A stretch of 63,854 nucleotides of DNA, counting the filler, from an uncultured Methanosarcinales archaeon (GTDB taxonomy: Archaea > Nanobdellota > Nanobdellia > Woesearchaeales > CAYXTQ01): assembly GCA_964608065.1 (NCBI GenBank). It is 4 parts of 4 records of this genome, joined end to end, with 100 filler letters (N's around TTAATTAATTAA, not from the genome) between each part and the next. Parts side by side here need not be neighbours in the genome. Positions count along the whole stretch, not along the records: positions 1 to 16,532 come from CAZSMA010000026.1; 3 more parts are not named here. One strand, given 5' to 3'. This document shows, in pieces, positions 1 to 48,887 of the stretch (within the stretch, counting starts at the first letter, position 1; the number at the start of each line of letters is the position of its first letter). A program made the position numbers and the translations under genes. A model generated the notes under the pieces. That model had not been told where the DNA came from and did not search any database. It saw only the letters and a program-made list of their open reading frames with translations.

Positions 1-252
1 TTTTTCTAAATCATCATTTAATGTTATCTTTTTATACTCTGATTTTATCAACTCAATCTGATCTGCATTTCTATCTTTAAGTAGGTTTACTATTCTTTCT
101 CCATCAGGAGTCCAAAAATTTAACCACCTTTTAATATTCACTGCATCTGCATTTGCTTCTTTTTCTGTATAACTTTCATCAGCTGCAAAAACAACCCCAC
201 TTAAAACTACTAAAAAGACAATCATCAACACAATTAATTTATTCTTAAACAA
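1..252 (-). CDS. Secreted protein with an annexin-repeat-like segment (N-terminal part, truncated by the window edge; not in the ORF track)
   Basis: Manual translation from TTG at 252 (SD-like GGTGAGG upstream; overlaps the stop of the 954-aa gene): MFKNKLIVLMIVFLVVLSGVVFA|ADESYTEKEANADAVNIKRWLNFWTPDGERIVNLLKDRNADQIELIKSEYKKITLNDDLEK, open to base 1. Confidence 0.75.
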   Translation of the reverse strand, partial: MFKNKLIVLMIVFLVVLSGVVFAADESYTEKEANADAVNIKRWLNFWTPDGERIVNLLKDRNADQIELIKSEYKKITLNDDLEK

Positions 253-3109
253 CAGCCTCACCTTCTTCTTCCTCTTCCTCATCAGTTATACCAGAGCAAG
301 CACTATCATCAACTTTTAATTGGTTCCATAATGGTTCGCAATTCTTTCCTATGCCTAAATCGCATAATATCTCTAAACCAACATTCAAAGTATCAACAAC
401 AGTGCATAATTTACATGAGCCTATTGGAGTAATACTTGTACATTGTGTTCTGCACACAGTGCTTAATGCAAATCCAATTGAATCAGCAGGATGCGATAAA
501 GCCCTTTTCACATTCTGTGTTAAATAACCAAGCGCAGATGCAAATGGAAATAAGTTAAACATTTCTCCATAAACAAACTTGCAATAACCATAGCTTCTCT
601 GCGAAGTGCACATCTGTACAGGCATACCTGCTACAGTCTGCTTCAGGCAGTTTACATACTGGCAATCAATAACCCTTGCTTTCTGCAGATTATAAAATAC
701 ACCAGGCAGGCATAAAAATGCAACACTATAAATTAAGCTGTGCTGTGGATCAACATTACCAAACCACCCTTGTTTTGAATAAGCTTTGCTCTGCAGGAAC
801 CAATCTTCTCTTGCTAAATCTCCTAATCCTAAGAATCCTGATTTTTGCTCACCAGTTTTTTTATTAATACCCCATTCTTTTTCCCATAGCTGGCAGCTCA
901 TTAATTTACATGCCGGAAAAAAGTGTGTATCATACATTCTTCTTAAATTTTGTTTTTGTATTTCGGTGAGTTCACCCACCTCTTTAGCGGTTACACATGC
1001 TCCTGCAGATACTACTGATGGCGCTCCAACAGCACAAGCTTTTGCAAATATATCTTTGATATTAGAAAATATTATTGAAATATCTTTAATCCAATTACCC
1101 ATCCTGCATAATGTCTTGGCAAACTTAAACACACCATTAAAAGTCTCAATCCACTTACCTTTAACCAACCAATTATCACTAACTCTGTCTATCTCATTTT
1201 GAATACTTCCATCTAATGTTCCCAAAGGATTATAATAATATGAAATCTTTACTGTAACATTCTCAGTCTCTATTGAAGATATCCTTTGATTCTCAACTAA
1301 AGTTCTTATCTTTAAAGTACATTTTATAGGCAATTCATCTGCAGGAGGCTCTGCTCTTTCTAAGGTATATTTCAGATAAATCTTGTAAGGTAAATCTCCT
1401 GCTTCTAAAGTGTTATAATTAAACAGCTCAGGCTTATTTCCTAAAGCAGAGCTCAGATAAGCACCATAACTTTCACCCTCTGCATTAACACAATCTCCAA
1501 TCTCCACACTTAATGGCCACATATTACTTCTACCTTTTGCTCTTAAATCAACTGGGAAATAAATATAAGGATCATAAAGTGCAATTAATTCTTTATCTAT
1601 TCCATCAGGGCTTGGATAACCAACTGAAGCTTCCCAGTAATCTATCTCTTCAGTTTCAGCAGCAAAAACAATTAAGGGATGCTCAAAAATATCTGTGTTT
1701 CCAACAACATCTGTAAATTCAAACTTTAATCTATTTACAATATATCCTTCAATATTAATCTCACTTGTTTCCCAAATACATTCCCAATAATTACCATCCT
1801 GCGCACACAGCCCTGGAATATCTTTTGCATCTTTTATAAATTTTGAAAAATCAGCTGTAGCAGCCAATGCAATTGGCTCATAAAGTGTTGCTTTTATCAA
1901 CAAAGCATTGCCTGTTTGTATATAACCTTCTATCAATGGATTAGAGCCAGCAACTGGAATTACTTCAACACTTTCAACAATTGGAGCTTTAATATCAACC
2001 TTTACATCTTTTTCCAAACTTCCAACTAATTTATTTCCTAATTTATCGCTTGTTTCAGGGCTTACTCTAATTTTATAGGTTCCATCCCTTACAGTAATTG
2101 CAACATTGTTCCAATAACAATTAGTTCCTTCGCAATCAGTTGCAGGCATAACTCCAGAACCTAATTCACTTAGGTCCAAAATAACATCACTGTTATCCAA
2201 GCCAACACCAGCTTCTGTAAAACTAGCAGTAAATTTATTTTCTATTTCCTTAACATAACTCATTCCATTATAGATTATATCTGTTTTAATATCGGTAACT
2301 TCTGGACCTGTAGAATCTATCTTAAAGTTGTAAGATAAACTTACACTTTCAAAATTTCCTGATTTATCAGCAGCTCCAAACAACAGATTAGCAGTCTTGC
2401 TGTCACTTAAACTTATAGAAGCATCAAACCTGCATTTTGCACCGTCTATGATATCAGTACAACTGCCTGGACTTAAACTTGAGTAACTTCCACTAGGGTT
2501 TAAATCATTTAAATCAGCTATGATACTGTTTCTGTCTACACCACTTTCAGAATCTGTAATATCAACATAAACATATACATCCATATTTCCTGAAACCCAA
2601 TCATTGATGTCTCTGTTGACCCTGTCAGTAACTTTTATATTACTAATACCTGGTTGTGTACTATCTTCAGAAAGCTCTTTTTCTACAACAACTGCACTGT
2701 TTATTAAATTATCATCCTTGTCTGTAACAGTAACAATCATTTCCTCACTAAGTGAAGCTTCTTTTAGACTGTAAGGCATATCATAGAATGTACATCTTGT
2801 GAATTCTGGGAATGGAATACAACTTCCTTGTTTCATGCCCCCTGATACAAATTGTCCATTAACCTGCTTTAAATCAATCATATTTATCTCTACACTGACA
2901 TCTATCAAAACATTTTGAGGAATAAAGTATTCCACTAAGTTGCTGCTGCTGTCAGTTATCACTACATCTTTTAAAGTAACAGTCATACTCTGCGCTGTTT
3001 CCTCAGTTACTTCTGTAGTGTCTATAGCTTCAGCAAAAGCTAATGGAAACATGACTATTAAATTTATCATAAACAATGCAATTATCCTCAATGTTTTTTC
3101 TTTATTCAT
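245..3109 (-). CDS. Large secreted/surface protein (954 aa): signal peptide, Ig-like beta repeats with Cys pairs, Cys-rich hydrophobic C-terminal domain, acidic tail; paralog of 10720-14220
   Basis: Signal peptide ...FPLAFA|E; repeated D-x-x-x-P linkers and D-x-x-G-N motifs; many Cys in the last ~300 aa; shared blocks with the 1166-aa ORF. Confidence 0.85.
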   Translation of the reverse strand: MNKEKTLRIIALFMINLIVMFPLAFAEAIDTTEVTEETAQSMTVTLKDVVITDSSSNLVEYFIPQNVLIDVSVEINMIDLKQVNGQFVSGGMKQGSCIPFPEFTRCTFYDMPYSLKEASLSEEMIVTVTDKDDNLINSAVVVEKELSEDSTQPGISNIKVTDRVNRDINDWVSGNMDVYVYVDITDSESGVDRNSIIADLNDLNPSGSYSSLSPGSCTDIIDGAKCRFDASISLSDSKTANLLFGAADKSGNFESVSLSYNFKIDSTGPEVTDIKTDIIYNGMSYVKEIENKFTASFTEAGVGLDNSDVILDLSELGSGVMPATDCEGTNCYWNNVAITVRDGTYKIRVSPETSDKLGNKLVGSLEKDVKVDIKAPIVESVEVIPVAGSNPLIEGYIQTGNALLIKATLYEPIALAATADFSKFIKDAKDIPGLCAQDGNYWECIWETSEINIEGYIVNRLKFEFTDVVGNTDIFEHPLIVFAAETEEIDYWEASVGYPSPDGIDKELIALYDPYIYFPVDLRAKGRSNMWPLSVEIGDCVNAEGESYGAYLSSALGNKPELFNYNTLEAGDLPYKIYLKYTLERAEPPADELPIKCTLKIRTLVENQRISSIETENVTVKISYYYNPLGTLDGSIQNEIDRVSDNWLVKGKWIETFNGVFKFAKTLCRMGNWIKDISIIFSNIKDIFAKACAVGAPSVVSAGACVTAKEVGELTEIQKQNLRRMYDTHFFPACKLMSCQLWEKEWGINKKTGEQKSGFLGLGDLAREDWFLQSKAYSKQGWFGNVDPQHSLIYSVAFLCLPGVFYNLQKARVIDCQYVNCLKQTVAGMPVQMCTSQRSYGYCKFVYGEMFNLFPFASALGYLTQNVKRALSHPADSIGFALSTVCRTQCTSITPIGSCKLCTVVDTLNVGLEILCDLGIGKNCEPLWNQLKVDDSACSGITDEEEEEEGEAVV

Positions 3110-3160
3110 TTGTTAAAATTTTCCTCCGAAAATTTTTACATTGAAAATCGTAGATTTTCA
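3110..3160. repeat. Double-hairpin intergenic element (REP-like), copy A
   Basis: gttaaaattttc-ctcc-gaaaatttttac then tgaaaatc-gta-gattttca; closely resembles 27739-27787. Confidence 0.75.
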
Positions 3161-5386
3161 TTTTTTAAATTTAGGCTCTAATTCTGATCTGTAAGTTTCA
3201 GACAATTCCTCAACTTTGCCCATCTGATCTGTATCATCAATACTTAAAAGATTAAATGAACTGCTGTCTACAGTGCTTATTACATAAAATTCTATTACAT
3301 CATTATTATCCAGCTTATCTTTGGTTATTTCAAACTCAAAAACAGCTCCGCCTTCATTAAAAGTCTCATTGAACTTCATATCATCTATTGTTACACATTT
3401 TTCTCCAATACCTGCAATACCACCAGCACATTCTTCTTTTCCTTTAAACACAACTTCTTTTCTGCCAGCTAAATCAGGGAATTTGTAGAATAAATCCATT
3501 CTTGCTTTGTATTTTCCAGGGATAATCCTTTCAAGCACTGCTTCAAATTCATCTCCATTAAATATACCATTTACAGCAAAGTCTTCTTCATTCTGATTTT
3601 CTTTTATTTTCTCTAGAGACAGCACAACATACTCATTATCTAATAAATTGACAGCCTCATTATTAAACTTCCAGGATGTGTCTTTCATCATTCTTTTCTT
3701 TTTAACAACAAAATCCTTTGTTCTATAAGGCTCTAAATCAACAATTATTTTCTCATTGTCACATAAAACATCCTCTCTTTCACAGCCAGAAGTTGTGTAA
3801 CATCTTACACTATATGTTTGAGGATAAGACCAATAACCTTGCTTTGAAACCAATAAACTGCATCCAGAACCAACACATTGTGGTAAACTAATTTCATTCA
3901 AACCTTGTTCAACAACACCAATATCACAGCTTTCACTTGTACTGCTGTAAATTACATTCACATCTTCTAACCTGTTATTGTACTGTGCATCTAAAGTTTC
4001 TATTAAAACCTTAGCACATCTTTGATTTTCCTGACACAACAAACTTGTAGTTGGAGGAGCAACTAACTCTTTATCCCTGGAGCTGCAGTTCAAAGCTTTA
4101 TTATCTCTTACATTTGCTTCTAAACCAAAAATAAAATGATAGCCTTTTTTATTTAAAGCATCTTTATCATAAATATCCACTTTTACAGGATAGCTTATAT
4201 CATAATAAAAATCATATCTTCTTATTCCAACCCAGTCAAAATAACTTACAATAGCAGACTCAGGACCAATAACATCTCCACTTACACCTCTTCCGCTGAT
4301 GTCAAAATAAATAGGCCAGTAATTCAGATATTCAAAATTTACATTTAAATCTTCATAAGTATCTCCAGAAGGACTTACTATAGGCAATGTTGCTCTTCCA
4401 TAAAAATCAGCCCTTGCATTATAATTAGCAGTGTTATAGACCTGGAAGAAACTTGTGTAATGAGGTAGTATGTTGTTTTGTACTTTTTTTTTCACATCTG
4501 TTTTTGTCCATATAACAGGGGCTTTACCAGGCTCTAATGTTGAAGCGCTTATTGGAGGCAATTTATCCTTATTCATTCCTAGACCAAAAGCAGTTAACTC
4601 TTCAATAGTCCATCTGTCTAAATACATGAACTTTTGCTCAGCATTTGTAATACCTTCTGCTAATTCATATATCTTTCTCAGGTCTAATGGAATTGTAACA
4701 TAAAATCTATCAATTCTTTCTTTTGATCTTTGTTTTTTAATCTCTAGAGGATATTTTACTTCTATTACAACACTGTCTCTGATACTTACATCGCTTTTAA
4801 CAGTTCCTACTTCATTAATATTAAATCCTTGTTCTTCAAATGCCTTAAAATTATCCAGACAATTCCTTAAATTATTATCAATGTATTTTTCTAATTGGCC
4901 TTCTATGCTTGGCTCTCCCTGTGTTTTGTATAAATTTGGTTTTTCACTTCCGCATACACAATTTTCTCTGCATCTGTTATTTGATTTGAAATAATACCAG
5001 TAAGCTACAGAACTATCTTTGTTGTTTGGGAAAACCATAAAAGCACTGCTTTCTGTTGGCTCATTAGGATTAGCATTTATTCCATGTTCATATAAATCAA
5101 CATATCCTCCTGAATTACCAATCTTAGTTAATGCATTTTCTCCTTCCCTTATAATGCAATACTCTACAAACTGCTGCACAGGTTCAAACATAACAGGAAC
5201 TTCCTCAACAACAGCTTGTTCACTTTCAATAACTTTAACTCCTTCACTTTCAATAACAATATAAGAGCCGACTATTATTAATAGAATTATTCCTAGGATA
5301 ATGAATATAGTTACTTGACTTTTTTTTTGTCTTCGAAATCCAAGATTTCTAAGATGCTCAAAAATTTTTGATTTTTGACATTTCAT
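3158..5386 (-). CDS. Large class III signal-peptide (prepilin-type) protein, 742 aa; paralog of 7856-10108
   Basis: KKS|QVTIFIILGIILLII N-terminus; colinear similarity to the 750-aa ORF. Confidence 0.85.
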   Translation of the reverse strand: MKCQKSKIFEHLRNLGFRRQKKSQVTIFIILGIILLIIVGSYIVIESEGVKVIESEQAVVEEVPVMFEPVQQFVEYCIIREGENALTKIGNSGGYVDLYEHGINANPNEPTESSAFMVFPNNKDSSVAYWYYFKSNNRCRENCVCGSEKPNLYKTQGEPSIEGQLEKYIDNNLRNCLDNFKAFEEQGFNINEVGTVKSDVSIRDSVVIEVKYPLEIKKQRSKERIDRFYVTIPLDLRKIYELAEGITNAEQKFMYLDRWTIEELTAFGLGMNKDKLPPISASTLEPGKAPVIWTKTDVKKKVQNNILPHYTSFFQVYNTANYNARADFYGRATLPIVSPSGDTYEDLNVNFEYLNYWPIYFDISGRGVSGDVIGPESAIVSYFDWVGIRRYDFYYDISYPVKVDIYDKDALNKKGYHFIFGLEANVRDNKALNCSSRDKELVAPPTTSLLCQENQRCAKVLIETLDAQYNNRLEDVNVIYSSTSESCDIGVVEQGLNEISLPQCVGSGCSLLVSKQGYWSYPQTYSVRCYTTSGCEREDVLCDNEKIIVDLEPYRTKDFVVKKKRMMKDTSWKFNNEAVNLLDNEYVVLSLEKIKENQNEEDFAVNGIFNGDEFEAVLERIIPGKYKARMDLFYKFPDLAGRKEVVFKGKEECAGGIAGIGEKCVTIDDMKFNETFNEGGAVFEFEITKDKLDNNDVIEFYVISTVDSSSFNLLSIDDTDQMGKVEELSETYRSELEPKFKK
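5330..5382. repeat. Double-hairpin element in frame within the leader of the 742-aa gene
   Basis: gaaatc-caa-gatttc (5335-5349) and tcaaaaat-ttttg-atttttga (5358-5378); leader is 17 aa longer than in the paralog. Confidence 0.55.
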
Positions 5387-5547
5387 AAGTCTTTTAACCC
5401 CTTTTGGATTAGCTCTAGATCATACATTTTTTGTTCCATTAACTCTCTAGCCAGCATTGACTTTTTCTTTCCTAATTTTTTAGCTACTTTTTGAAGTAAT
5501 TCATCTATCTCTTTAGAAACAGTTATCCTTATCTGTATGCTACTCAT
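5383..5547 (-). CDS. Ribbon-helix-helix (CopG-like) small regulator, 54 aa (not in the ORF track)
   Basis: MSSIQIRITVSKEIDELLQKVAKKLGKKKSMLARELMEQKMYDLELIQKGLKDL*: alternating beta-strand, then helix-G-x-x-K-S-helix; ATGA overlap with the 742-aa gene. Confidence 0.8.
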   Translation of the reverse strand: MSSIQIRITVSKEIDELLQKVAKKLGKKKSMLARELMEQKMYDLELIQKGLKDL

Positions 5548-5567
5548 TTTTGTTTTTGGCTATGTTT

Positions 5568-5617
5568 GACCTACAATAGGTCTTAGTTTATACTGAATAT
5601 TGTACTAATATATAAAA
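5568..5617 (-). promoter_or_regulatory. TATA box (TTTTATATA, 5609-5617) plus palindrome GACCTA-caa-TAGGTC (5568-5582), putative RHH operator
   Basis: Perfect 6-bp inverted repeat between the TATA box and the RHH start codon. Confidence 0.55.
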
Positions 5618-5640
5618 CTTTCTATAAGAAAATTATTTAT

Positions 5641-5729
5641 TTATACTTTATTTAGCCTATTTTAATACTTTAGTTATACTTTATTTAGAAATATTATACT
5701 TTATTTATCCATTATTTATACTTAATTTT
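5641..5729. repeat. Phased direct repeats, consensus TTATACTTTA(TTTA)
   Basis: Copies start at 5641, 5663, 5674, 5694, 5716 (spacing 22, 11, 20, 22 bp). Confidence 0.65.
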
Positions 5730-5736
5730 GTATAAA

Positions 5737-6951
5737 TTACTCTTGAATCTCACTTAAAGTATTGCAGCTGTTTCTTAAATATTCATTAGTTATTTTATTA
5801 CAAACACTATAATCCTTATTCATGACAAAAGTTAGATAACAACTATCTCTTCTGGAATCTGTTGAAATTCTCTCGCATATCTTGCTGTCATTAGTTACTT
5901 CTGCGACTTTTTCATAGCATTTGTCTTTTGCCCTGTCTTCTTCCACATATTTACAATTATCTACTAACTTTGTTACCTCAGCTAATCCAACAAAACAATT
6001 ATCTCTATAAGTTATTTGAGGTATTTCTTTGCAATAATCTCCAGCTAAATCTGGATCAGTAGATGCAATCTCTTTTATCTTTTCTATCCTGTCATACATA
6101 GTTAATCCAAAAAATATATCACCGCAGTCTTTTTCACAGTTTTCATAATCTTCTCCATCTTCACAAATACTGTTTCCGCAGCAATCTTCTATTGTATCAT
6201 GCTTACATTCATAATTAGTTTCATAGCTGCAGTAATCCTCAGTACATTCATTATCATCATCACAGTTTGATGGGCAGCTTGCGCAAGGTTGGCAACTTCC
6301 ACCACAATCTACTCCTTTTTCATCTCCGTTTTGGATGTTGTCAAAACAGTTTGGCTCTATTTCTTGTGGTTCTTCAGGCTCTTCTATTCTTTCTTTTTCT
6401 ACAACAAAACTTTCAGAAGCTCTTGCTTCCTGGTCTTCATATCTTGCTATAACCTGTAAATCATAATTTCCTTCTAAACCATCTTCAGGAACATTTATAC
6501 TTAATCTTTTAGAAGTTGTTGTCTCTATAGCTATAGCCTGTTCTTTGCTGTTGACAACCTTATTTTTGCTGTCTCTGATAAAATATCTTAAATTAATATC
6601 ATATCTTCTTTCTGATCCTAGGTTTGTAAGTTCTACATTAAAATCCAGATCTTCACCTGGCTCTAGACTTGTGCTGTATAAATCAACTTCAACATCCAGT
6701 AATCTTTCAGTATTTTCAGGATTAAAATAAACCAAAAAAGCTGAGAAAATTAATCCTAAGCTTAAAACAATGCTTACAATCAGGACAACTGTATTTTTAG
6801 GAATATGGTGCTTAGTGTATAAATGACCTATTGCTTTGTCAACTGTTTCAGAACTATAGCCATGCTCAATCAAATGCTGTTTTACAGTATTTATATCAAA
6901 ACCTTTAGCTAATTCTGCCCTTATGTAGTTTAGTAAAGCTTTGTTAACCAT
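5737..6951 (-). CDS. Single-pass membrane protein (404 aa): short cytoplasmic helical domain, TM, Ig-like domain, Cys-rich repeats
   Basis: TM VVLIVSIVLSLGLIFSAFLVYF; CFDNIQNGDEKGVDCGGSCQPC; CDDDNECTEDYC; C-x-x-I...R-D-x-C-Y repeats. Confidence 0.8.
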   Translation of the reverse strand: MVNKALLNYIRAELAKGFDINTVKQHLIEHGYSSETVDKAIGHLYTKHHIPKNTVVLIVSIVLSLGLIFSAFLVYFNPENTERLLDVEVDLYSTSLEPGEDLDFNVELTNLGSERRYDINLRYFIRDSKNKVVNSKEQAIAIETTTSKRLSINVPEDGLEGNYDLQVIARYEDQEARASESFVVEKERIEEPEEPQEIEPNCFDNIQNGDEKGVDCGGSCQPCASCPSNCDDDNECTEDYCSYETNYECKHDTIEDCCGNSICEDGEDYENCEKDCGDIFFGLTMYDRIEKIKEIASTDPDLAGDYCKEIPQITYRDNCFVGLAEVTKLVDNCKYVEEDRAKDKCYEKVAEVTNDSKICERISTDSRRDSCYLTFVMNKDYSVCNKITNEYLRNSCNTLSEIQE

Positions 6952-6952
6952 T

Positions 6953-7492
6953 TTATATAACTGTCCATTCTTTTGTTTTGTATTTCATCTCCCAAACTTC
7001 CAAAAAATCTTCAAAATAGCTTGTTTGATTTATAGGGACCAAAACAGCACCTATACTAACTCTGTCTCCTTTAATTTTTTTCAAGTTTTTTTTTAAAGCA
7101 ATCCCAAACAACGTCTTTTTTGACTTGTTAAGATGCTTTAAGTCATATGCGTAAAGCCTCATTGGCCTTATTTTTGATATATCCCTTAAAAAACCATCTT
7201 GTTTTACACTATACCCCTCATTTAATAAACTTAAAAATAATGAACTGTAAATATCATCAAAAGTGATAAAATCCAAATGCGCCTTTTTAACACCTATATC
7301 CTTCTTTAATTTAGAGGCTAACTTAACATCTTTTTCTTTCACAATAAAAGCTAAATCAATATCTTTAGGGTTATCCCTTCCTTTAACAAAAGACCCAAAA
7401 ATTATGATATCTTCTACATCATCATATCTTTTTAAGATCCTCTTCAAATTCTTTTTCAATTCCACTAGTCTCGGCAATTTCTTTGATTGCAT
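6953..7492 (-). CDS. Minimal nucleotidyltransferase (MNT, antitoxin-like) with an extra C-terminal domain
   Basis: IIIFGSFVKGRDNPKDIDL = GS...DxD Pol-beta NTase motif; C-terminal ~70 aa resemble the ORF at 14213-14500. Confidence 0.85.
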   Translation of the reverse strand: MQSKKLPRLVELKKNLKRILKRYDDVEDIIIFGSFVKGRDNPKDIDLAFIVKEKDVKLASKLKKDIGVKKAHLDFITFDDIYSSLFLSLLNEGYSVKQDGFLRDISKIRPMRLYAYDLKHLNKSKKTLFGIALKKNLKKIKGDRVSIGAVLVPINQTSYFEDFLEVWEMKYKTKEWTVI

Positions 7493-7781
7493 ATTTTACC
7501 TCATCACAATCCTTCTTGTTCATAATATGATCATAAGAATCTGTATAAGTTGTAAATACTCCATCCACTATCTTATGGACATCTGGGAAAGATACTCTTA
7601 AAAAAAGGAAAATTTCAGTATGATTTTTAGGAGCTTTCCTTAACTTTTCTGTTATTAAATAAGAGCATAATATAGTTAATACCTTGTAATAATTGCTTAC
7701 AGCAGGACCATATCTTTCTTTAGATTCAGAACTAATTCCTTCTTCCAAAAATTCCTTAAATATTTGTTTGTGTTCTCCCAT
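7422..7781 (-). CDS. HEPN-like protein (partner of MNT)
   Basis: All-helical ~119 aa with AVSNYYK and PKNH, overlapping the MNT gene; own TATA near 7838-7846; ATG at 7781 preferred to TTG at 7793. Confidence 0.7.
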   Translation of the reverse strand: MGEHKQIFKEFLEEGISSESKERYGPAVSNYYKVLTILCSYLITEKLRKAPKNHTEIFLFLRVSFPDVHKIVDGVFTTYTDSYDHIMNKKDCDEVKYAIKEIAETSGIEKEFEEDLKKI

Positions 7782-7855
7782 TTTGATTATCAAAAATTAA
7801 ACCATTTTTATCTTTTAATTTTGACTATCAATATGCTTATATATAAATCTTTTGA

Positions 7856-10108
7856 TTAACTAAAAACTGGTTTAATCCAATTTTTGAATGTCAGTGAATA
7901 TTCTTCGATTCTAGCAGATTCATTCATTCCAATTTTTGGATCAATTAAACCTTCTCCATCAATACAGGTTGCATCAGGAACCCTTATTGCATAAAACTCT
8001 GCATTTTGATTATCTAAGTCACTGTTTGATATGTCTAAATAACTTGTTGTCTGGTCAAATATTGCCCCGCCAATAGAAGTCATTTCAATAGGATCTTCTG
8101 GAATCCATTCATCAACTATATCACAACATCCTTGTATACATATTCCTGGACAGTTTGAAATTGGAATATTTGTACTATAATCCCATGAATCTTGTGTCTT
8201 ACACCCTATAGTATTTTTACAAAGATGCTTACATTCTGCATGGATTGTATATTTGTTATTATCGATATAAGTTGCTCTGACTTCATATCTTCCTGGAACT
8301 AATTTTAAAGTTTGCTCTTGATCATTATCATCAAAAATAAATGCTTGTGTTGAAATTTGGTCATAGATTTGGTCATCTCTGTATTTATTGATCATTAGGA
8401 TAATTTGTTCTCCACTTGTTAATTCTGTTGCACCAGGACAACAACTATCTGGCTGGGTCATTCTGTAAACCTTTGAAGTTACTTTTAATTCTCTATAAGG
8501 CTCTAGACTTGTTGTAATCATTTTATCTTTGCCAAACTCTGTTGTTAGTAGCATAGCTTTCCCCATATAACCTTCTTTTTCTATAATCAGATATCCTCCA
8601 CTGCAAATTGGGAACTTTCCTTTATAGACCCCTTCATTATTAGTTGCACCTATAACACAAGAATCATATCTTCCACAACCAAAACTTAGTGAAGCACCTT
8701 CAACAGGTTCACCATTTTTGTTGTCTTTAATCCTAATCTCAATATCTCCGCTTAACTTTTGATTTTCTTTGCACATTAAGCTTTTTGTTGGAGGTAAAGG
8801 CACAGGCACACTAGGAGAAACACCAACATTAACATTACTATAATCCCATAATCCAATTGTTCCCTGGCCTAAATGCCAGTTTAATAAATTAATATTATCT
8901 CTTATATTTGTCTCTAAACCAAACATAAACTTATACCCTCCTTCAAAATTAACCTTAACTTCATCCCTATCATCTTCTAATAAAACTATATTTGGATAAC
9001 TTATATCATAGAAAAACTCATAATAATTAGTCTGTGTTGGAGGCAGTATTCCCAATGGATAAGACTGCTTGTCAATATTTGGCTTTAAGACATTCCCGCT
9101 TCTTGGAGTTATATCAAAATACAATGGCCAGCCTAAGTAAAAGAAATCTGCTGATAAATAAGTTTGTTCTTCCAAAGGATTTAAGAAATATATTTTATAA
9201 GCATCTCCAAAATATTCTCCATTTTTGGTTTTATCTACTTTTATATAGTTTGTATTAACAGTTAAAATATCTTTTAATCTTAATTCAACTATATCTTTTA
9301 ACCATGTTATTGCATAATATTCATGATCAACAGCTGCTATTGGAGGCAGTTTATTTACATCTATTCCTGAATAAGCGCTTATAATATAACTTAATATATT
9401 CTCCATACTTTGATTATTCATCTCATCTATTGTTATATATGCTGCTACTCTTAAAATCTCATTTAGATTCAATGCAATGCTTGTTTTAAATTCTTTTAAA
9501 TCAGCTTTTGAGTTACCTTTAGAAACCTCAATTGGATAATCAACAAAAACATTTACATCTTTTGCTGCTATTGTTGTTTCTGTTTTTATCTTACCTTTAT
9601 TAAACTTAAAACCCTGTTCTTTAAACTCTGCAAAATCATTTAAGCAGTTATCAAGCTCTCTGTTAATGAATCTATTTATTTGTCCTTCAATGTCTTCTTT
9701 GCTTGGAGTTAAACTGCTTACATAACATTCTTGGCAATTATTTTGACTTTGTAAATACCACCAATAAGCTATAGGCTCATCAAGTTCTGTTGATAAGCTA
9801 ACTCCATCAGACTCTGTAGGTCTGGTAACATCAATATCAAATTTTCTTCCACTTAGCTCTTCATCATTCATATCTATATAGCCGCCATGCTCTCCTATTT
9901 TTTTTAAAGCTTCTATTGTTTTTTCTTTAATACATTCTTCAACATAAGTTTTAATTGGATCAAACATTACAGGAACTTCTTCTACTAAAACTTCTTGCTC
10001 TGCGCTTTTTCTTCTTGTTGTTACAGAATAAATCAATATAGAGGTCATTAACAATAGAACTATTCCTAGTATGATGAAAATTGTTACTTGGCTCTTTCTA
10101 GTTGCCAT
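7856..10108 (-). CDS. Large class III signal-peptide (prepilin-type) protein, 750 aa
   Basis: MATRKS|QVTIFIILGIVLL; carboxypeptidase-regulatory-like beta segment (GEPVEGASL...ATNNEGVY); Cys-rich insert near the C-terminus. Confidence 0.85.
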   Translation of the reverse strand: MATRKSQVTIFIILGIVLLLMTSILIYSVTTRRKSAEQEVLVEEVPVMFDPIKTYVEECIKEKTIEALKKIGEHGGYIDMNDEELSGRKFDIDVTRPTESDGVSLSTELDEPIAYWWYLQSQNNCQECYVSSLTPSKEDIEGQINRFINRELDNCLNDFAEFKEQGFKFNKGKIKTETTIAAKDVNVFVDYPIEVSKGNSKADLKEFKTSIALNLNEILRVAAYITIDEMNNQSMENILSYIISAYSGIDVNKLPPIAAVDHEYYAITWLKDIVELRLKDILTVNTNYIKVDKTKNGEYFGDAYKIYFLNPLEEQTYLSADFFYLGWPLYFDITPRSGNVLKPNIDKQSYPLGILPPTQTNYYEFFYDISYPNIVLLEDDRDEVKVNFEGGYKFMFGLETNIRDNINLLNWHLGQGTIGLWDYSNVNVGVSPSVPVPLPPTKSLMCKENQKLSGDIEIRIKDNKNGEPVEGASLSFGCGRYDSCVIGATNNEGVYKGKFPICSGGYLIIEKEGYMGKAMLLTTEFGKDKMITTSLEPYRELKVTSKVYRMTQPDSCCPGATELTSGEQIILMINKYRDDQIYDQISTQAFIFDDNDQEQTLKLVPGRYEVRATYIDNNKYTIHAECKHLCKNTIGCKTQDSWDYSTNIPISNCPGICIQGCCDIVDEWIPEDPIEMTSIGGAIFDQTTSYLDISNSDLDNQNAEFYAIRVPDATCIDGEGLIDPKIGMNESARIEEYSLTFKNWIKPVFS

Positions 10109-10723
10109 TTACCAGTCACCCCCATGTAGGCCACCACCACTACCACCACTAGAACCATAACTGCTGCTTGGAACATATACTCCTTTATTATCTACAATTG
10201 GAACAGTAATTATTGTAGTTATATCGCTGCCCTTTAACTCATAACCCATCATTACTTGGTCATATTCATCAGTTAGATACTCAGCCCAATAACCAGAATT
10301 AGCTTCACCTTTTCCTAAATTGGTTGGTGCAACAACTCGTTTATACTCATCTTTATCTTTTTTCTTCAATCTTACAGCAAATTCTAAGCTTCTGTTCATA
10401 GCATCCTCTATATAATATCCAACTTCATACATAACTGTATCATCTGGAAGTTTTTCTGATTTTTCTCCTTGTAATGTGACTGTTGTTTGTGATAAATAAG
10501 TTGGACCATTGTCAACATTATATGATTCAGGAGTTCCACCCCATTTTCTGCAAACTTCTACTTCCCAATCTTCTACTGCATACCAATTTTGTACTCTTGG
10601 GTCAAATGAATACCAATCAGATCCTGCATCCCCTTCTGTATATGTTGTGTATTTGGAGCTTATTGGTGTAACTAACAAAATCATTACTAAAACCCACATT
10701 AAAATTATTTTTTTAGTTTTCAT
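10109..10723 (-). CDS. Secreted hypothetical protein (204 aa) with Gly/Ser-rich tail
   Basis: Signal peptide MKTKKIILMWVLVMILLVTPISS; tightly packed between its neighbours. Confidence 0.8.
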   Translation of the reverse strand: MKTKKIILMWVLVMILLVTPISSKYTTYTEGDAGSDWYSFDPRVQNWYAVEDWEVEVCRKWGGTPESYNVDNGPTYLSQTTVTLQGEKSEKLPDDTVMYEVGYYIEDAMNRSLEFAVRLKKKDKDEYKRVVAPTNLGKGEANSGYWAEYLTDEYDQVMMGYELKGSDITTIITVPIVDNKGVYVPSSSYGSSGGSGGGLHGGDW

Positions 10724-13700
10724 ATGTAATCATCTATATCCTCACAATAATCATAACCTTCCAGTTCATCTGTATATGGTTTAATTATAATACCGCTGCT
10801 TACTATATCAACAACATTCTTTATTGTTTGTATAGTCGCTATTCCAGAACAAATTCTATGTGGAAAAACAGCACATGGTGGCAGTGGACATTCTGTAACA
10901 ACAGCAGTATAATCCCATATTAAACATGGTAGCCCTAGAATGCTTAATACTAATTGAACTTTATCTTTTAGCATAGCACTCCATATATTTTCAAACCATT
11001 TTCCCCAGCTGTGACCATGCAATTTATATTGTGCACTGACATAGTACAGACAGTATCTCTCTCCAAATGCTCTATCACACGTATCTATAGGTAATCCTAA
11101 CTTTGAATTCTCATGCACACATTTTATCTGCATGCATTTTATCTGTCTTAGTTTTTTCTGGTTGTAAATAATTCCTGGCAAAAACAAACATTTTTCAGAG
11201 TAATATATGCTTTTATAAGGATCATAAGTCCAATAACTTGGTTCTATTATTCCTTCAACATTTGTTCTTGAACCAGGAGCATTCCAACTTCCTTTTAGTG
11301 GAAGGTTAACATTCATTGAGCCACCACTTAAACCAGTAGGTATCGTTACAGCGATAGAATTCGGTTTGGCTAAATCTGTCACTATAGTTAACATAGTATG
11401 TCCTAAAGCATTAGCATTGCATAAATATCCAGAATGTATCATGCAAGTCCATTTAAAGAAATAACCTGGTGTTGGTGGTATAGGTAATAGCCTTGGATCC
11501 CAAATCCAAAATCTTATAGCGTTGTGGATACTATTTAATGGTATACAAGCTGATTTGTGGGTTGCTTCAGCTAAAGGTTCTCCAACTATTGTTGTTTCCA
11601 AAGGACACGATGTTAACTCAGTAATTACTGTTAAAATTCCTTGTAGCAAAGCATCAATCTGAGCAATATTTCTAGCGATTGTACAAAGTAAATTTAACAT
11701 ATCATTATATTCTTCCTCTGTTTCAATCTTTTTATCCAACTCTTCAATCTCTTTTCCAAGGTCTTCAATCTTATCCTGGACATTATCTTCAATTGTGCCT
11801 AAAGGAATATTATAAAGAGGAACTTCTACTTTAACTCCCTCGTACTCTGGAAGACTATAGACTTTCTGTCCTGCTTTGACTCTTAAGGTCATATTACAGT
11901 CTATTGGGAATGTTTCTTCATCAACTCCTGTGATTGATGTTGCTGTTTTTACAACAATATAAGGAGTAAGTGTGTACTCATTCATCAGATATCCTGTGTT
12001 ACTTAGATGATCTGTCTTGCTGCAGTCAACAGCTTTGGTTAATATTTGTGGATCCCATCTTTGATTATTATATTCTGATTTTACACTTATCCTTGGGTTA
12101 AGGAAAACACTTATTGGTATTTTAGAAGCTGCTTGCTTGTCTATGAATCTAGGAACAAAGATTACAGGTTGTTGAATATAAAAGAAATCTGGAATGTTTC
12201 TTGTTTCTAAAGTGTATATAACAGCATTATGGTTTCTTACTGCTTTGTTTCCAGCAGCATCTGTTGCAATGATATTAACATTTGCGCTTGTGTATTCTGT
12301 TTTTAAATCACCTACTTCAAGATAGCATTCATGCATGTTTGGAATGCCTTCATAATCGCCGCATTCCATAATCTCAACAGAGCCAGTCTCGCTTATACTT
12401 GTTGTATTAATCTCAACTTTCAGCAGGTTCTTTTCTGTAACATTTACATTAAATATCAAAGTATCTTTATATGTTGGGAATTCAGGAAGAGTATTCACAC
12501 TGTTTATAACTGGGTTTCTGATATCAACAGTAAATTCTTTTTCTATATTTGTCCCTACATTTCCTAGTTTGTCTTCACCACTAAGAGTAACCATGACTTT
12601 GTTTCCATTATTACTCTTGGCTTCTATATTCCAATAACATGTCCAGCCATTAGTGCAGTTATCAGCATTTACATTGTCTAATCCAACTTCATTTAAGTTA
12701 AGATAAATATTGCTTTCATTCAATCCAACACCTATCTCATTTATAGAAGCTGTAATTAAAGTGTCTTTTCCAATAAAATATTTGCTGTCAAAGACTTTGT
12801 CAGAAACAAAATTACTAAAAACAGGTTCTTTATTATCAACCAATAATTTATAACTGAAAGTTTGCTCTTTTTCATTACTGCTTCTGTCTGCAGCATAAAA
12901 TTTAAAACTGACTTGTTTTGAAGTTTCGCTTTCTAAATTTATTGCAACACTCCATTTGCAGACAGAACCATTGCCCTGAGTACTACAACTTGACCTTTGA
13001 ATTTCTCCATAATCCTCGTTTAAAGCAGATAAATCAGCTTTTACTTTATTTTCATCTAAACCAGACTCACTTTCTATGATCTCAACCTCTAAAACTACTT
13101 TTACGTTTTTCCCATTATTCCAGTCAAGCTCATTTCCTCTTGAATCTGTTAATTTGAAATTACTTATTACAGGGCTTATTGTGTCTTCAATAAAACTATA
13201 AGGCATGTCTTCTGAGTTATAGTTTCCAACCAAATCTTTCAAAGTTACTGTTATTGTAGGGTTAGTATTTTTCATCTTTATTTTTGTAACCCATGAACAT
13301 TCAGTTGCATTGCAAGAAGTTGCAGCCTTATTAATAACATCTAAATCATTGATATTTAATACAGATTTTTGGGCATCTATTCCTGAATCATCAGTAAATT
13401 CAACTGTAACTTTAACATCTACTAATTCATTTTCAATATAGTATCCAATATCAGTTCCATCTGGTTTTGTAATCTTGATATTAGTTATATCTGGACCAGA
13501 AAAATCTGTGATAATGTTAACACTTTTGCTGCTGCTTAAACCAAAAGTATCATAAACAGTTAATCTTGCTTCAATATTATCTTCCAGAAGAAGGCTTGCA
13601 TTTATTGAGATATTGCCATTATAATCACATGATCCTGGGTCTGAATTTATTTCTATAATTTCAGAATAATCTCCTACTTCTAATATAGCACCCATTATTC

Positions 13701-14220
13701 CGCTGCATTTTCCTACAGCATCTGCTTTTTCTTTTATACTAAATGTAAATTCAACAGTATCGTTTGTATTATATACTGCTTTATTAGTCTCAAATTTAAC
13801 AATCTCTGGCTCTGTGCTGTCGCAGACTACCTCGACTTGTGCTCTGTCATATAAATCTCCATTATAGTAAAGATTGATATCATTAACATGATTAGGGCAA
13901 ACTTTTAATCCATATTCATCTAAATCAAGACTATCAAGATAGCAATAATAACTTCCATCGTAATCCAGACTGCAGCTTGTGAATTCAAATCCAGTCTCAC
14001 TGTCAGTGCCCCATAATCTAATTTGACTGGGTTCAATAACTTCATCATTTATTTTTGCATTAACTTCAAAACTGATTAAATCTGCGTCATCCCGGATATA
14101 ACCTTCAAGCATGTCTTCACCATAAACCTTAGGATTAGTCAATTCAGCAAAAGCTATTGGCAGGACAAGTATTAAATTTATCATAAATGCTGCGATTATT
14201 TGTAAGTATTTTTTATTCAT
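10720..14220 (-). CDS. Large secreted/surface protein (1166 aa): Ig-like repeats, coiled coil, Cys-rich hydrophobic C-terminal domain
   Basis: Signal peptide ...LPIAFA|E; repeated D..(G/E/S)P linkers and D..GN; coiled coil VQDKIEDLGKEIEELDKKIE; paralog of 245-3109. Confidence 0.85.
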   Translation of the reverse strand: MNKKYLQIIAAFMINLILVLPIAFAELTNPKVYGEDMLEGYIRDDADLISFEVNAKINDEVIEPSQIRLWGTDSETGFEFTSCSLDYDGSYYCYLDSLDLDEYGLKVCPNHVNDINLYYNGDLYDRAQVEVVCDSTEPEIVKFETNKAVYNTNDTVEFTFSIKEKADAVGKCSGIMGAILEVGDYSEIIEINSDPGSCDYNGNISINASLLLEDNIEARLTVYDTFGLSSSKSVNIITDFSGPDITNIKITKPDGTDIGYYIENELVDVKVTVEFTDDSGIDAQKSVLNINDLDVINKAATSCNATECSWVTKIKMKNTNPTITVTLKDLVGNYNSEDMPYSFIEDTISPVISNFKLTDSRGNELDWNNGKNVKVVLEVEIIESESGLDENKVKADLSALNEDYGEIQRSSCSTQGNGSVCKWSVAINLESETSKQVSFKFYAADRSSNEKEQTFSYKLLVDNKEPVFSNFVSDKVFDSKYFIGKDTLITASINEIGVGLNESNIYLNLNEVGLDNVNADNCTNGWTCYWNIEAKSNNGNKVMVTLSGEDKLGNVGTNIEKEFTVDIRNPVINSVNTLPEFPTYKDTLIFNVNVTEKNLLKVEINTTSISETGSVEIMECGDYEGIPNMHECYLEVGDLKTEYTSANVNIIATDAAGNKAVRNHNAVIYTLETRNIPDFFYIQQPVIFVPRFIDKQAASKIPISVFLNPRISVKSEYNNQRWDPQILTKAVDCSKTDHLSNTGYLMNEYTLTPYIVVKTATSITGVDEETFPIDCNMTLRVKAGQKVYSLPEYEGVKVEVPLYNIPLGTIEDNVQDKIEDLGKEIEELDKKIETEEEYNDMLNLLCTIARNIAQIDALLQGILTVITELTSCPLETTIVGEPLAEATHKSACIPLNSIHNAIRFWIWDPRLLPIPPTPGYFFKWTCMIHSGYLCNANALGHTMLTIVTDLAKPNSIAVTIPTGLSGGSMNVNLPLKGSWNAPGSRTNVEGIIEPSYWTYDPYKSIYYSEKCLFLPGIIYNQKKLRQIKCMQIKCVHENSKLGLPIDTCDRAFGERYCLYYVSAQYKLHGHSWGKWFENIWSAMLKDKVQLVLSILGLPCLIWDYTAVVTECPLPPCAVFPHRICSGIATIQTIKNVVDIVSSGIIIKPYTDELEGYDYCEDIDDYI

Positions 14221-14500
14221 TTAACCACACTTCTTTAACTTCATATTTTATGTTATTTGATGAAAAAAAATTAACAAAGTATTGTTTTTGGATAATTGGA
14301 ACAAGAATTACGTTCTGAGCTAATTTTTTGCCATAACTTTTTTCTACTAGACCTTTGTGCTCATATGTTTTTTTTATTTTTTTATCTTTATAGCCGAACA
14401 ACCCTCTGATGACCTTGACTTTTTTTTTTTGAGATAAATCTTTAAGAGAATAAATAAGTAGATTATATTGCCTTAAGTTCTTTAGCTCTTCAGCTGGCAT
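14213..14500 (-). CDS. Small basic protein, possibly Cas2/VapD-like ferredoxin fold
   Basis: LLIYSL...LFGY...GKKLAQNVILVP pattern; overlaps the start of the 1166-aa gene; TATA (TTTATAAA) near 14524-14531; fold assignment is inference. Confidence 0.55.
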   Translation of the reverse strand: MPAEELKNLRQYNLLIYSLKDLSQKKKVKVIRGLFGYKDKKIKKTYEHKGLVEKSYGKKLAQNVILVPIIQKQYFVNFFSSNNIKYEVKEVWLNE

Positions 14501-14535
14501 ATTCAATATATAATAGTCTTTTATTTATAAATCTT

Positions 14536-14745: not shown

Positions 14746-15084
14746 TTATCTAATAGGGATAGTAATTTTTCTTTCTTTTCTTTTAGAATCTTTATTCATA
14801 GACTCTTTTATTAAAGCCATCTCTAAATCTAATATTTTTTTAGTTACTGGATTTTTTGAATTTAAAGTAAATAATCTTGTTTTTCCAAATTTTCTTGTAA
14901 CTCTTAGAATTCCATGTTTTTCTAACTCCTCCCAGTAATTAAACAAGGAGGTTCTTGAAATTTCAGCCCCTTCAGCTATATCCTTTTTTGTAAAATCCAT
15001 TCCTTTGTTGTCTACTAAAAAGTCTATTATCTTAAACAAGGGCATTTCTCCTGTTAATTGCAACAGTAAAGATTTTTCTTTCAT
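14746..15084 (-). CDS. Winged-helix transcriptional regulator (~112 aa)
   Basis: KIIDFL...DFTKKDIAEGAEISRTSLFNYWEELEKHGILRVTRKFGKTRLFTLN; ATG at 15084 fits the promoter better than the ORF-track start. Confidence 0.85.
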   Translation of the reverse strand: MKEKSLLLQLTGEMPLFKIIDFLVDNKGMDFTKKDIAEGAEISRTSLFNYWEELEKHGILRVTRKFGKTRLFTLNSKNPVTKKILDLEMALIKESMNKDSKRKERKITIPIR

Positions 15085-15107
15085 AATTATATAAGGAAAA
15101 TAGAAAA

Positions 15108-15149
15108 GTATATAAACCTTTGGTTCCAAAGTACATTTTGGTGTACTTT
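15108..15149. promoter_or_regulatory. Shared divergent TATA (gtatataaac) plus palindromes ctttgg-tt-ccaaag and aaagtaca-N6-tgtacttt
   Basis: 67-bp spacer between divergent wHTH genes; inverted repeats at 15118-15131 and 15128-15149. Confidence 0.55.
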
Positions 15150-15151
15150 TC

Positions 15152-15418
15152 ATGTGGAAAGATGATGAAATTAAAGGCAAAATTTTACATAAATTAACTC
15201 GTTTAGGTAAATTTAAACACAGCCATACATCTATTGATAATCTTCCAAAAGGGTTTCCTGGAGAAATGAAAGGCAGAGTTAAAACTCTAATTAATGAATT
15301 AAAAAAAGAAGGTTTATTGTTTAGTAAACCAACAGCTTATGGAGAAGAAATATCTGTTAATACAGATAAAAAAGAAAAAATAATGGAGTATGTAGAAATT
15401 TTTATTAAAAAAGAATAG
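15152..15418 (+). CDS. Small winged-helix-like protein (88 aa)
   Basis: HTSIDNLPKGFP...VKTLINELKKEGLLFSKP...EISVN; divergent from the wHTH gene. Confidence 0.65.
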   Translation: MWKDDEIKGKILHKLTRLGKFKHSHTSIDNLPKGFPGEMKGRVKTLINELKKEGLLFSKPTAYGEEISVNTDKKEKIMEYVEIFIKKE

Positions 15419-16532: not shown

Positions 16533-16632
16533 NNNNNNNNNNNNNNNNNNNNNNNNNNNNNNNNNNNNNNNNNNNNTTAATTAATTAANNNNNNNNNNNN
16601 NNNNNNNNNNNNNNNNNNNNNNNNNNNNNNNN
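16533..16632. other. Artificial contig linker (N-TTAATTAATTAA-N)
   Basis: Ns flanking a six-frame stop linker. Confidence 0.98.
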
Positions 16633-16633
16633 T

Positions 16634-32792: not shown

Positions 32793-32892
32793 NNNNNNNN
32801 NNNNNNNNNNNNNNNNNNNNNNNNNNNNNNNNNNNNTTAATTAATTAANNNNNNNNNNNNNNNNNNNNNNNNNNNNNNNNNNNNNNNNNNNN
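32793..32892. other. Artificial contig linker
   Basis: N-TTAATTAATTAA-N. Confidence 0.98.
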
Positions 32893-47128: not shown

Positions 47129-47228
47129 NNNNNNNNNNNNNNNNNNNNNNNNNNNNNNNNNNNNNNNNNNNNNNNNNNNNNNNNNNNNNNNNNNNNNNNN
47201 NNNNNNNNNNNNNNNNNNNNNNNNNNNN
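47129..47228. other. Scaffold gap (100 N, no linker)
   Basis: Run of Ns interrupting the C-terminus of the radical SAM gene. Confidence 0.95.
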
Positions 47229-48787: not shown

Positions 48788-48887
48788 NNNNNNNNNNNNN
48801 NNNNNNNNNNNNNNNNNNNNNNNNNNNNNNNTTAATTAATTAANNNNNNNNNNNNNNNNNNNNNNNNNNNNNNNNNNNNNNNNNNNN
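48788..48887. other. Artificial contig linker
   Basis: N-TTAATTAATTAA-N. Confidence 0.98.

Follow-up and report, generated by a model that had tools for sequence, protein, structure and literature searches.

The window analysed here is a stretch of 63,854 nt from an uncultured archaeon (GenBank assembly GCA_964608065.1), and its first 14,506 nt carry eleven open reading frames (ORFs), all on the minus strand, which include two large protein families that we call A and C. We propose, with a probability of about one half, that A and C form a membrane-anchored complex at the cell surface, with B, X and D as accessory proteins and with an ancient second set of its components; such a complex would most likely be a surface fibril or an adhesin layer for contact with cells or surfaces. 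The cluster itself is best explained as the local copy of a conserved chromosomal envelope gene cluster of Woesearchaeota-type DPANN archaea and not as a local oddity. The genes on which this reading turns are the following.

10720..14220, minus strand: A, 1166 aa, with a Sec-type signal, immunoglobulin (Ig)-like units and a Cys-rich helical C-terminal module
10109..10723, minus strand: B, 204 aa, a small secreted protein
7856..10108, minus strand: C, 750 aa, with a class III-type signal, an alpha/beta N-domain and three beta-sandwich domains
5737..6951, minus strand: D, 404 aa, a bitopic membrane protein
3158..5386, minus strand: C', 742 aa, an ancient paralog of C that shares its class III-type N-terminus
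245..3109, minus strand: A', 954 aa, an ancient paralog of A in which the Ig-like units are fewer

The order of the eleven ORFs is a 97-aa ORF, A, B, C, a 123-aa ORF, MNT, D, RHH, C', A' and E, and most of the junctions overlap or abut; the start of B overlaps the stop of A by 4 nt, and the stop of B abuts the start of C (10108/10109). This order agreed with a preliminary description of the cluster made from the sequence alone, which had also taken A and A', and likewise C and C', for paralogs. Both relationships were borne out by pairwise comparison, A and A' being 24% identical over 883 columns (E 5e-49) and C and C' 29% identical over 769 columns (E 1e-68), and all the shared motifs quoted there were present in the translations.

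The arrangement was compared with 52 loci that hold a relative of C, taken from species-representative genomes (the query alignment contained 11 sequences). By BLAST, A was found in 38 of these loci, B in 34 and D in 35; with the window included, the B family was present in 39 loci and the D family in 37. The canonical order in the relatives was A-B-(X)-C, then D, where X is a polytopic membrane protein of ~260 aa with 4-8 hydrophobic segments, located between B and C in 25 + 4 loci by clustering. Among the primary C genes, 32 had at least 3 kb of upstream sequence, and 31 of these were preceded by A within 2.5 kb on the same strand; 34 had at least 1.5 kb downstream, and 29 of these were followed by D. 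Only these counts of A and D are unbiased, because a primary C was defined by a preceding B or X, which makes the counts of B and X circular. The preliminary description had let its proposal depend on co-occurrence in related genomes and on the lack of a match to a characterised S-layer family; the co-occurrence of A and C was found to be strongly conserved, and no such match was obtained by sequence.

Further copies were located downstream of the primary genes. A second C lay within 7 kb downstream in 10 of 23 loci, and a second C followed by A' was observed in 13 cases. In five relatives A' was followed in turn by a protein of 366-383 aa (cluster 13) that resembles B (hhalign probability 91.9%, E 7e-7), and after this B'-like protein came a paralog of X and a third C (L018 and L027) or the third C directly (L045). 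The layout is better read as operon 1, A-B-(X)-C, then D, then operon 2, C'-A'-B'-X'-C'', which in the window is broken off by the contig end just after A'. The cluster had earlier been called nearly mirror-symmetric; the paralogs do stand in that order, but the relatives show two successive operons around D. The neighbours of the cluster were methionyl-tRNA synthetase (MetRS), which adjoins it in the window as well, ThrRS, MCM, TBP, ribosomal proteins including S6e, PTH2, eIF2-beta, PolD, SRP54 and enolase.

In the tree of C, a primary clade of 45 rows that contains window C and a secondary one of 21 rows that contains window C' both reached 100 in the Shimodaira-Hasegawa-like approximate likelihood ratio test (SH-aLRT), and in the tree of A the A' type formed a single clade of 10 rows that included window A' (SH-aLRT 99). 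The sub-groupings of A' mirrored those of C', the window standing with L010, L009 with L022, and L012, L014, L027 and L018 with L045. Because the A and C trees match, the A-C pair was duplicated once, long ago, and its partners were kept together. These trees were built in quick mode with no mixture model, and the long branches of L045, L048 and L008 are uncertain.

Modelling of the C N-domain together with the A C-terminus gave scores of 0.65, 0.70 and 0.78 (median 0.70), and three controls all gave 0.00; in these runs the predicted local distance difference test (pLDDT) of the partner was 64-70, with agreement in at least 20% of contacts. In calibration, 116 of 157 solved complexes but only 2 of 215 mismatched pairs scored as high as 0.70, counts that are a rough guide only, since our own alignments were used. 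The predicted interface comprised residues 20-41, 77-87, 138-153 and 372-389 on the side of A (numbering of the C-terminal fragment, 668-1166) and residues 198-221, 238-249, 259-269 and 282-287 of the C N-domain. On the A side the interface was more conserved than the rest of the fragment (0.43 vs 0.34, permutation p 0.0013), and among its residues were D27 and C381, which are invariant, and G375, which is nearly so. The model supports a predicted binding between A and C.

The N-terminus of window C is MATRKS/QVTIFIILGI, and C and C' both have K-S/Q-V-T-I-F-I-I-L-G. A class III-type signal, [KR][KR]-[G/A/S/T]-Q-[IVL]-T-x-[FY] and then a hydrophobic run, was present in 58 of the 66 C proteins of at least 600 aa (Q at +1 was demanded by the search pattern), with G in 24, A in 21, S in 12 and T in one at position -1; the other eight were truncated or had miscalled starts, and one (L021) is without the G. 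This conservation upholds the class III signal peptides that had been assigned to C and C'. Q at position +1 is typical of Epd-type pilins. In the AlphaFold2 (AF2) model of C (31 sequences, pLDDT 81.9), residues 4-37 form a helix and residues ~45-400 an alpha/beta domain, after which a disordered loop (414-443) leads into three beta-sandwiches (~450-750); residues 35-41, between the N-terminal helix and the next helix (47-73) in the globular domain, have a pLDDT below 50. Across the family the N-domain (357-392 residues) has a mean pairwise identity of 32% and the C-terminal part (265-505 residues) one of 26%, a pattern of conserved base and variable tip.

A begins with a Sec-type signal, which is followed by about six tandem Ig-like units of 105-118 aa, one more Ig-like domain and an all-alpha, Cys-rich C-terminal module (~800-1166). 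In the N-terminal two thirds of A, the unit-boundary motif D-x3-P-x-[IV] recurs at residues 134, 239, 346, 462 and 566, with a spacing of 104-116 residues, and among 26 members of the family Big_13 was matched in four and Big_3_3 in three. In the AF2 model of residues 668-1166 (20 sequences) a beta domain at 1-136 precedes a set of helices, the first of 62 residues, and the alignment of these 20 sequences has 12 invariant columns, nine of which are Cys. By a simple hydropathy scan, A, A', B, C, C' and E each have a hydrophobic segment at the N-terminus and D has one inside the chain (56-74), in line with the export or anchor signals earlier ascribed to all seven non-regulatory products. That most of these are Cys-rich was confirmed for five of the seven (A 2.7%, A' 2.8%, C 2.4%, C' 2.3% and D 5.4%) but not for B, which has one Cys, or for E, which has none.

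Taken as parts of one complex, C would be exported by way of its class III (prepilin-like) signal and stay attached through its N-terminal hydrophobic helix, which would be either a plain membrane anchor, as in Sulfolobus bindosome proteins, or part of a short pilin-like stem. A, which is predicted to be exported by Sec and to be without an anchor of its own, would be bound by the membrane-proximal N-domain of C through its C-terminal module, that is, the last Ig-like domain with the Cys-rich helical domain. The ~6 Ig-like domains of A and the three beta-sandwiches of C would then form the variable part of the complex, exposed and directed away from the cell. B (secreted), X (polytopic, absent in the window) and D (bitopic, Cys-rich) may be accessory or assembly partners, and the duplicated set (C'-A'-...) may be a second version of the same complex.

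Several results weigh against this proposal. Nothing in the analysis bears directly on adhesion or host contact, and the complex score is the model's own confidence and not a measurement. The C side of the predicted interface was not more conserved than the rest of the domain (0.42 vs 0.45, p 0.78), and confidence in the C-terminal model of A is no more than moderate (pLDDT 71), falling below 50 at residues 290-330. Both window C and window C' have Ser at -1, the residue of a minority of the family. No Pfam class III model matched C or C' at E <= 0.1, the signal being read from its motif, and no other Pfam or NCBIfam model did so except for a chance match to YtkA; the missing class III match is weak evidence, because such curated profiles are very short. 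No class III peptidase was identified. The pattern of conserved base and variable tip is not seen for A, because its identity is ~23% in both halves, and X is missing in the window, so that it must be dispensable or encoded elsewhere.

The N-terminus of C would also fit a true type IV filament, in which C, C' and the further C paralogs are large modular pilins, polymerised or placed at the tip by machinery encoded elsewhere, and A is the tip adhesin. Besides the conserved signal with its Q at +1 and the predicted N-terminal helix, a T2SSE-family ATPase ~4 kb upstream of A in one of the 52 loci (L050:3-1133, E 1.3e-13) speaks for it. According to PMC13705601, some Nanobdellati have filaments of Epd-type system 1, and binding proteins with class III signals, such as GlcS, AraS and TreS of the Sulfolobus bindosome, are often encoded away from the filament machinery; archaellin transcripts in Woesearchaeota are reported in PMC11606122. 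Nevertheless, we consider such a filament unlikely, as the machinery it needs was unlinked in 51 of the 52 loci. Among 145 neighbour proteins or families scanned (21 recurrent, and 4 + 120 singletons of at least 180 aa, with E <= 1e-8 for the 120, which could miss weak matches), neither a T2SSF platform nor an A24 peptidase came up at the thresholds used. Outside the C family, no small pilin or other protein with the class III motif was found in the window or among the 2138 ORFs of the 52 loci, except for one chance match in the A family. X was ruled out as the prepilin peptidase because it has no conserved acidic pair (neither a conserved Asp nor GxGD), the low-confidence linker at 35-41 separates the helix of C from its globular part in the model, and type IV filament systems are scarce in DPANN archaea according to PMC13705601.

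In the window itself, the genes scanned included no pilus ATPase, platform or peptidase, as the preliminary description had said for the assembly ATPase and platform. The runs of N at 16533-16632, 32793-32892 and 48788-48887 (paired 44 N around the six-frame stop linker TTAATTAATTAA) and a further run of 100 N at 47129-47228 show that the window consists of joined contigs of a draft genome, four or five of them at the least, so gene adjacency across them is not real; because the window is not one contiguous stretch, the absence of machinery from it says little on linkage. The heteromeric appendage first proposed for this cluster is therefore retained in part: co-assembly of A and C is backed by their joint duplication and by the complex model, but a pilus- or archaellum-type appendage is not, with no small pilin and with an ATPase near a single locus.

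Parallels to a membrane-anchored A-C complex include surface proteins that use a pilin-type export signal. The bindosome proteins, as described in PMC13705601, are like C large, globular non-pilins with a prepilin-type N-terminus, encoded with their functional partners and not with an ATPase or platform; C differs from them in having no substrate-binding-protein fold or ABC transporter neighbour, an undescribed alpha/beta N-domain, CnaB-like sandwiches and, in A, an obligatory partner. Modular or minor type IV pilins and pilus adhesins (PilB of S. sanguinis; archaeal PilY-like arCOG03511 and Ig-rich adhesins, in PMC13705601) share with the cluster a pilin-type N-terminus on adhesin-like modules and Ig-rich partners, whereas the cluster has no linked machinery or major pilin and no sequence or fold match to PilY or to known pilin heads.

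The fold of C also bears on another alternative, an S-layer-like lattice in which A is the outer canopy and C the membrane-bound stalk, as in SlaA/SlaB of Sulfolobales, so that the cluster would encode the main cell coat. With whole C as query, Foldseek returned only CnaB/carboxypeptidase-regulatory-like (prealbumin-like) sandwiches, from Gram-positive pilins, SlaB and teneurin, at E-values that reached 1e-8 and query-normalised template modelling (TM) scores of just 0.06-0.15. The best of these E-values (1e-8 to 1e-5) belonged to sortase pilins and CnaB adhesins of Gram-positive bacteria (4oq1, 5hts, 6fwv), by way of tandem CnaB/prealbumin-like sandwiches; this is likeness at the level of domains only (query-normalised TM ~0.1), in another domain of life and with another mode of anchoring, and no sortase motif was seen, although no search aimed at one was made. 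The match to SlaB (8qox_B, E 3e-6) is weak, and SlaA/SlaB resemble the cluster further in being adjacent genes for a large, secreted beta protein of several domains (Ig-rich in the case of A) and a membrane-anchored beta-sandwich stalk. Other points in favour of a lattice are the core-genome position beside housekeeping genes in many species, a weak match of the A profile to the Deinococcus HPI surface-layer protein (E 0.023, PDB profile search), the very large size of the family (given below) and the big glycosylation clusters on other contigs of the same genome.

We find the lattice doubtful all the same. Similarity to SlaB is low (TM 0.12 and 0.19), extends over generic beta-sandwiches and is not accompanied by similarity in sequence, and A, A', C and C' had no match to the S-layer families of Pfam and NCBIfam. 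The anchor of C is N-terminal and prepilin-like, unlike that of SlaB, and A ends in an all-alpha, Cys-rich domain without a known fold. Two to three paralogous sets per genome would be unusual for an S-layer, and metagenome-assembled genomes of Woesearchaeota express genes already annotated as S-layer, as reported in PMC11606122.

The C-terminal module of A allows for yet another reading. A hydrophobic stretch was noted at about residues 180-205 of this region, where 13 of 20 rows reached a Kyte-Doolittle value of at least 1.5 within 170-215; it falls at the end of the 62-residue helix, by the helix limits of AF2, and is weak in window A and A'. If the complex were a device to breach a partner cell, C would hold A at the membrane of the symbiont, the Ig stalk would span the gap, and the disulfide-rich helical domain of A would insert into the partner membrane as a pore or bridge, with the duplicated sets as alternative host-range modules. 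Pores or bridges have been seen in other DPANN-host pairs. We judge such a device improbable for the A-C complex. Foldseek with the A C-terminus gave no match at E <= 1e-3 in the PDB or BFVD, the weaker ones aligning ~110-180 columns to Ig-like proteins.

B has the conserved motifs W-Y..WE..VC and LYEV.WYI and matched nothing in Pfam, NCBIfam or the PDB. D has a small N-terminal helical domain, a transmembrane segment at 56-74, a CARDB-like beta domain (E 1.5e-4) and Cys-rich repeats, with a Dicty_CTDC match (E 4e-4) that was also obtained in 5 of 22 members. It lies on the strand opposite to the cluster in 28 of 29 relatives and on the same strand in the window; this inversion coincides with the pair formed by MNT and the 123-aa ORF, inserted just upstream, and the gap between MNT and D is 1 nt. 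No gene for X was found elsewhere in the window by search, and about one third of the relatives are likewise without it.

Neither A, A', B, C nor C' matched a family in Pfam, NCBIfam or PADLOC, and X matched none in Pfam or NCBIfam; the profiles of A, B and C gave nothing below E 1e-3 against PDB sequences, and among 24 long relatives of C that were scanned there was one weak CarboxypepD_reg match and nothing else. Look-ups in the ESM Atlas returned unnamed clusters or a match at the chance level (0.75) only. The profile of the C N-domain, searched against 1.84 billion representatives (50%-identity clusters), had 6553 matches at E <= 1e-3, of which 3929 reached 1e-10 and 1323 reached 1e-30. 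A word-based search with C gave 48 relatives; where a source gave a name, it was 'hypothetical protein', and the organisms named were Woesearchaeota, Nanoarchaeota, Nanobdellota, Aenigmarchaeota and one plain 'archaeon'; a search with the A C-terminus gave 11 relatives of the same kind, again with no source name but 'hypothetical protein'. In the literature, papers' supplements aside, no prior description of the A or C families was found. The preliminary description had proposed a candidate undescribed apparatus, and by these searches the A and C families are undescribed.

DPANN archaea make up a large share of archaeal diversity. To our knowledge, no attachment or envelope machinery has been described for Woesearchaeota. 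The cluster supplies two large, DPANN-restricted, undescribed families (A and C) with conserved synteny, a predicted heterodimer interface and a prepilin-type anchor, and so gives an entry to how cells of the Woesearchaeota type build their surface and touch their partners. If the proposed complex is real, it would extend the 'functionalised' surface proteins with class III signals to a group in which, according to PMC13705601, type IV filament systems are scarce.

The other genes of the cluster contig are these.

14213..14506, minus strand: 97-aa ORF, earlier called 'Cas2-like', which overlaps the start of A
7422..7793, minus strand: 123-aa ORF with R-x5-H (HEPN-like by motif only), putative partner of MNT
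6953..7492, minus strand: MNT nucleotidyltransferase, 179 aa, with a Polbeta match
5383..5547, minus strand: RHH, 54 aa, RelB-like antitoxin-type, which overlaps the start of C'
1..282, minus strand: E, first 94 residues of an exported protein, the rest lost at the contig end
15420-16532, minus strand: MetRS fragment, last 360 residues (relatives ~655 aa), cut by the contig end
14746-15180, minus strand: small ORF between the cluster and MetRS
15152-15418, plus strand: small ORF between the cluster and MetRS

MNT matched Polbeta (E 3e-9) and NTP_transf_2 (E 4e-6) in Pfam and, under its cut-off, MntA in NCBIfam (E 1.7e-6), so that its earlier naming stands. The 123-aa ORF next to it, earlier named HEPN, has this adjacency and an R-x5-H motif (RKAPKNH), but no profile in Pfam, NCBIfam or PADLOC matched it. 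RHH does resemble RelB antitoxins (NCBIfam, E 2.5e-6), although with a score under the family cut-off. By BLAST, a homolog of MNT was found in one of the 52 loci, one of the HEPN-like ORF in none and one of RHH in one. MNT and the HEPN-like ORF are probably an inserted toxin-antitoxin-like pair and not part of the apparatus, and RHH is probably accessory or regulatory.

Such toxin-antitoxin-like genes inside the cluster, together with Cys-rich exported proteins of an undescribed family, might suggest an integrated virus or mobile element with spike or entry proteins. This origin is most improbable. The same gene order stands beside the same housekeeping genes across 52 species-level genomes, nearly all of which have no such toxin-antitoxin genes, and no integrase, capsid or packaging gene was found in the scans of the window. 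The lack of viral (BFVD) matches for the A C-terminus argues in the same direction, as does the GC content of the cluster contig, which is similar to that of the other contigs (0.30-0.35 vs 0.26-0.33).

Two names given to the outermost ORFs are not supported. The 97-aa ORF had no match in Pfam, NCBIfam or PADLOC that would make it Cas2-like, and the scan of window ORFs, which did not extend to CRISPR arrays, gave no cas genes. Over 86 aa it shares 31% identity (pairwise E 1e-7) with the C-terminal extension of MNT (residues 104-175; 6953-7264), and by this similarity the two have in common a small domain of an uncharacterised family; the ORF is kept directly upstream of A in four loci (L003, L010, L028 and L030). 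The annexin match of E covers 39 residues of an incomplete protein and scores 15.2 bits (E 0.022) against a Pfam gathering cut-off of 25, which does not support the name annexin-like. It has a signal-like segment at residues 16-34 and matched the hidden Markov model of the B'-like cluster 13 weakly (E 0.0032), mainly over the N-terminal signal region; beyond this match, no relation was found between E and the proteins encoded after A' in the nearest relatives. E may be the start of a B'-like gene.

The cluster contig is 16,532 bp long; E is cut by one of its ends and MetRS by the opposite one. The MetRS fragment is 62% identical to MetRS of Woesearchaeota, its best named matches, which together with the names of the matches of A and C supports a Woesearchaeota-type DPANN archaeon as the putative source organism. 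The 52 loci are labelled Woesearchaeota (26), Nanoarchaeota/Nanoarchaeia (10), Aenigmarchaeota (2), 'uncultured Methanosarcinales' (13) and Alphaproteobacteria (1). Those with the Methanosarcinales label (L002-L005, L012, L020, L022, L030-L032, L046, L047 and L050) and the alphaproteobacterial one (L040) all have DPANN-type neighbours, and these bins are probably mislabelled or contaminated.

A scan for bacterial-type promoters and terminators, which is unsuited to archaea, gave fewer sites than shuffled sequence. The 144-aa ORF at 14746-15180 had weak helix-turn-helix matches and homologs in two related loci, and it is a possible local regulator. The other contigs (16751-48484) are dominated by genes for nucleotide sugars and glycosyltransferases (GlmU, GlmS, UDP-glucose dehydrogenases, epimerases, GT1/GT2/GT4 and B12-radical SAM), which indicates a capacity for heavy surface glycosylation; these genes and a 5S rRNA, located on other pieces of the window, belong to the same assembly as the cluster, and GlmU (16633-17773) has lost its N-terminus at a contig end. 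The 306-aa protein at 61419-62339 (minus strand) has HTH_20 and S_layer_C (PF05124, E 7e-13) and looks like a regulator, not a structural S-layer protein. In L050, which is the most divergent locus (C 24% identical), the T2SSE ATPase is followed by a 746-aa protein without a Pfam match (L050:1143-3380). A few kb downstream of the cluster, L024 has a large protein with an SLT lytic transglycosylase domain (L024:12369-16001, minus strand, E 6e-10) and L031 one with Peptidase_M23 (L031:16024-18309, minus strand, E 9e-11), both of which are possible cell-wall hydrolases in a DPANN genome.

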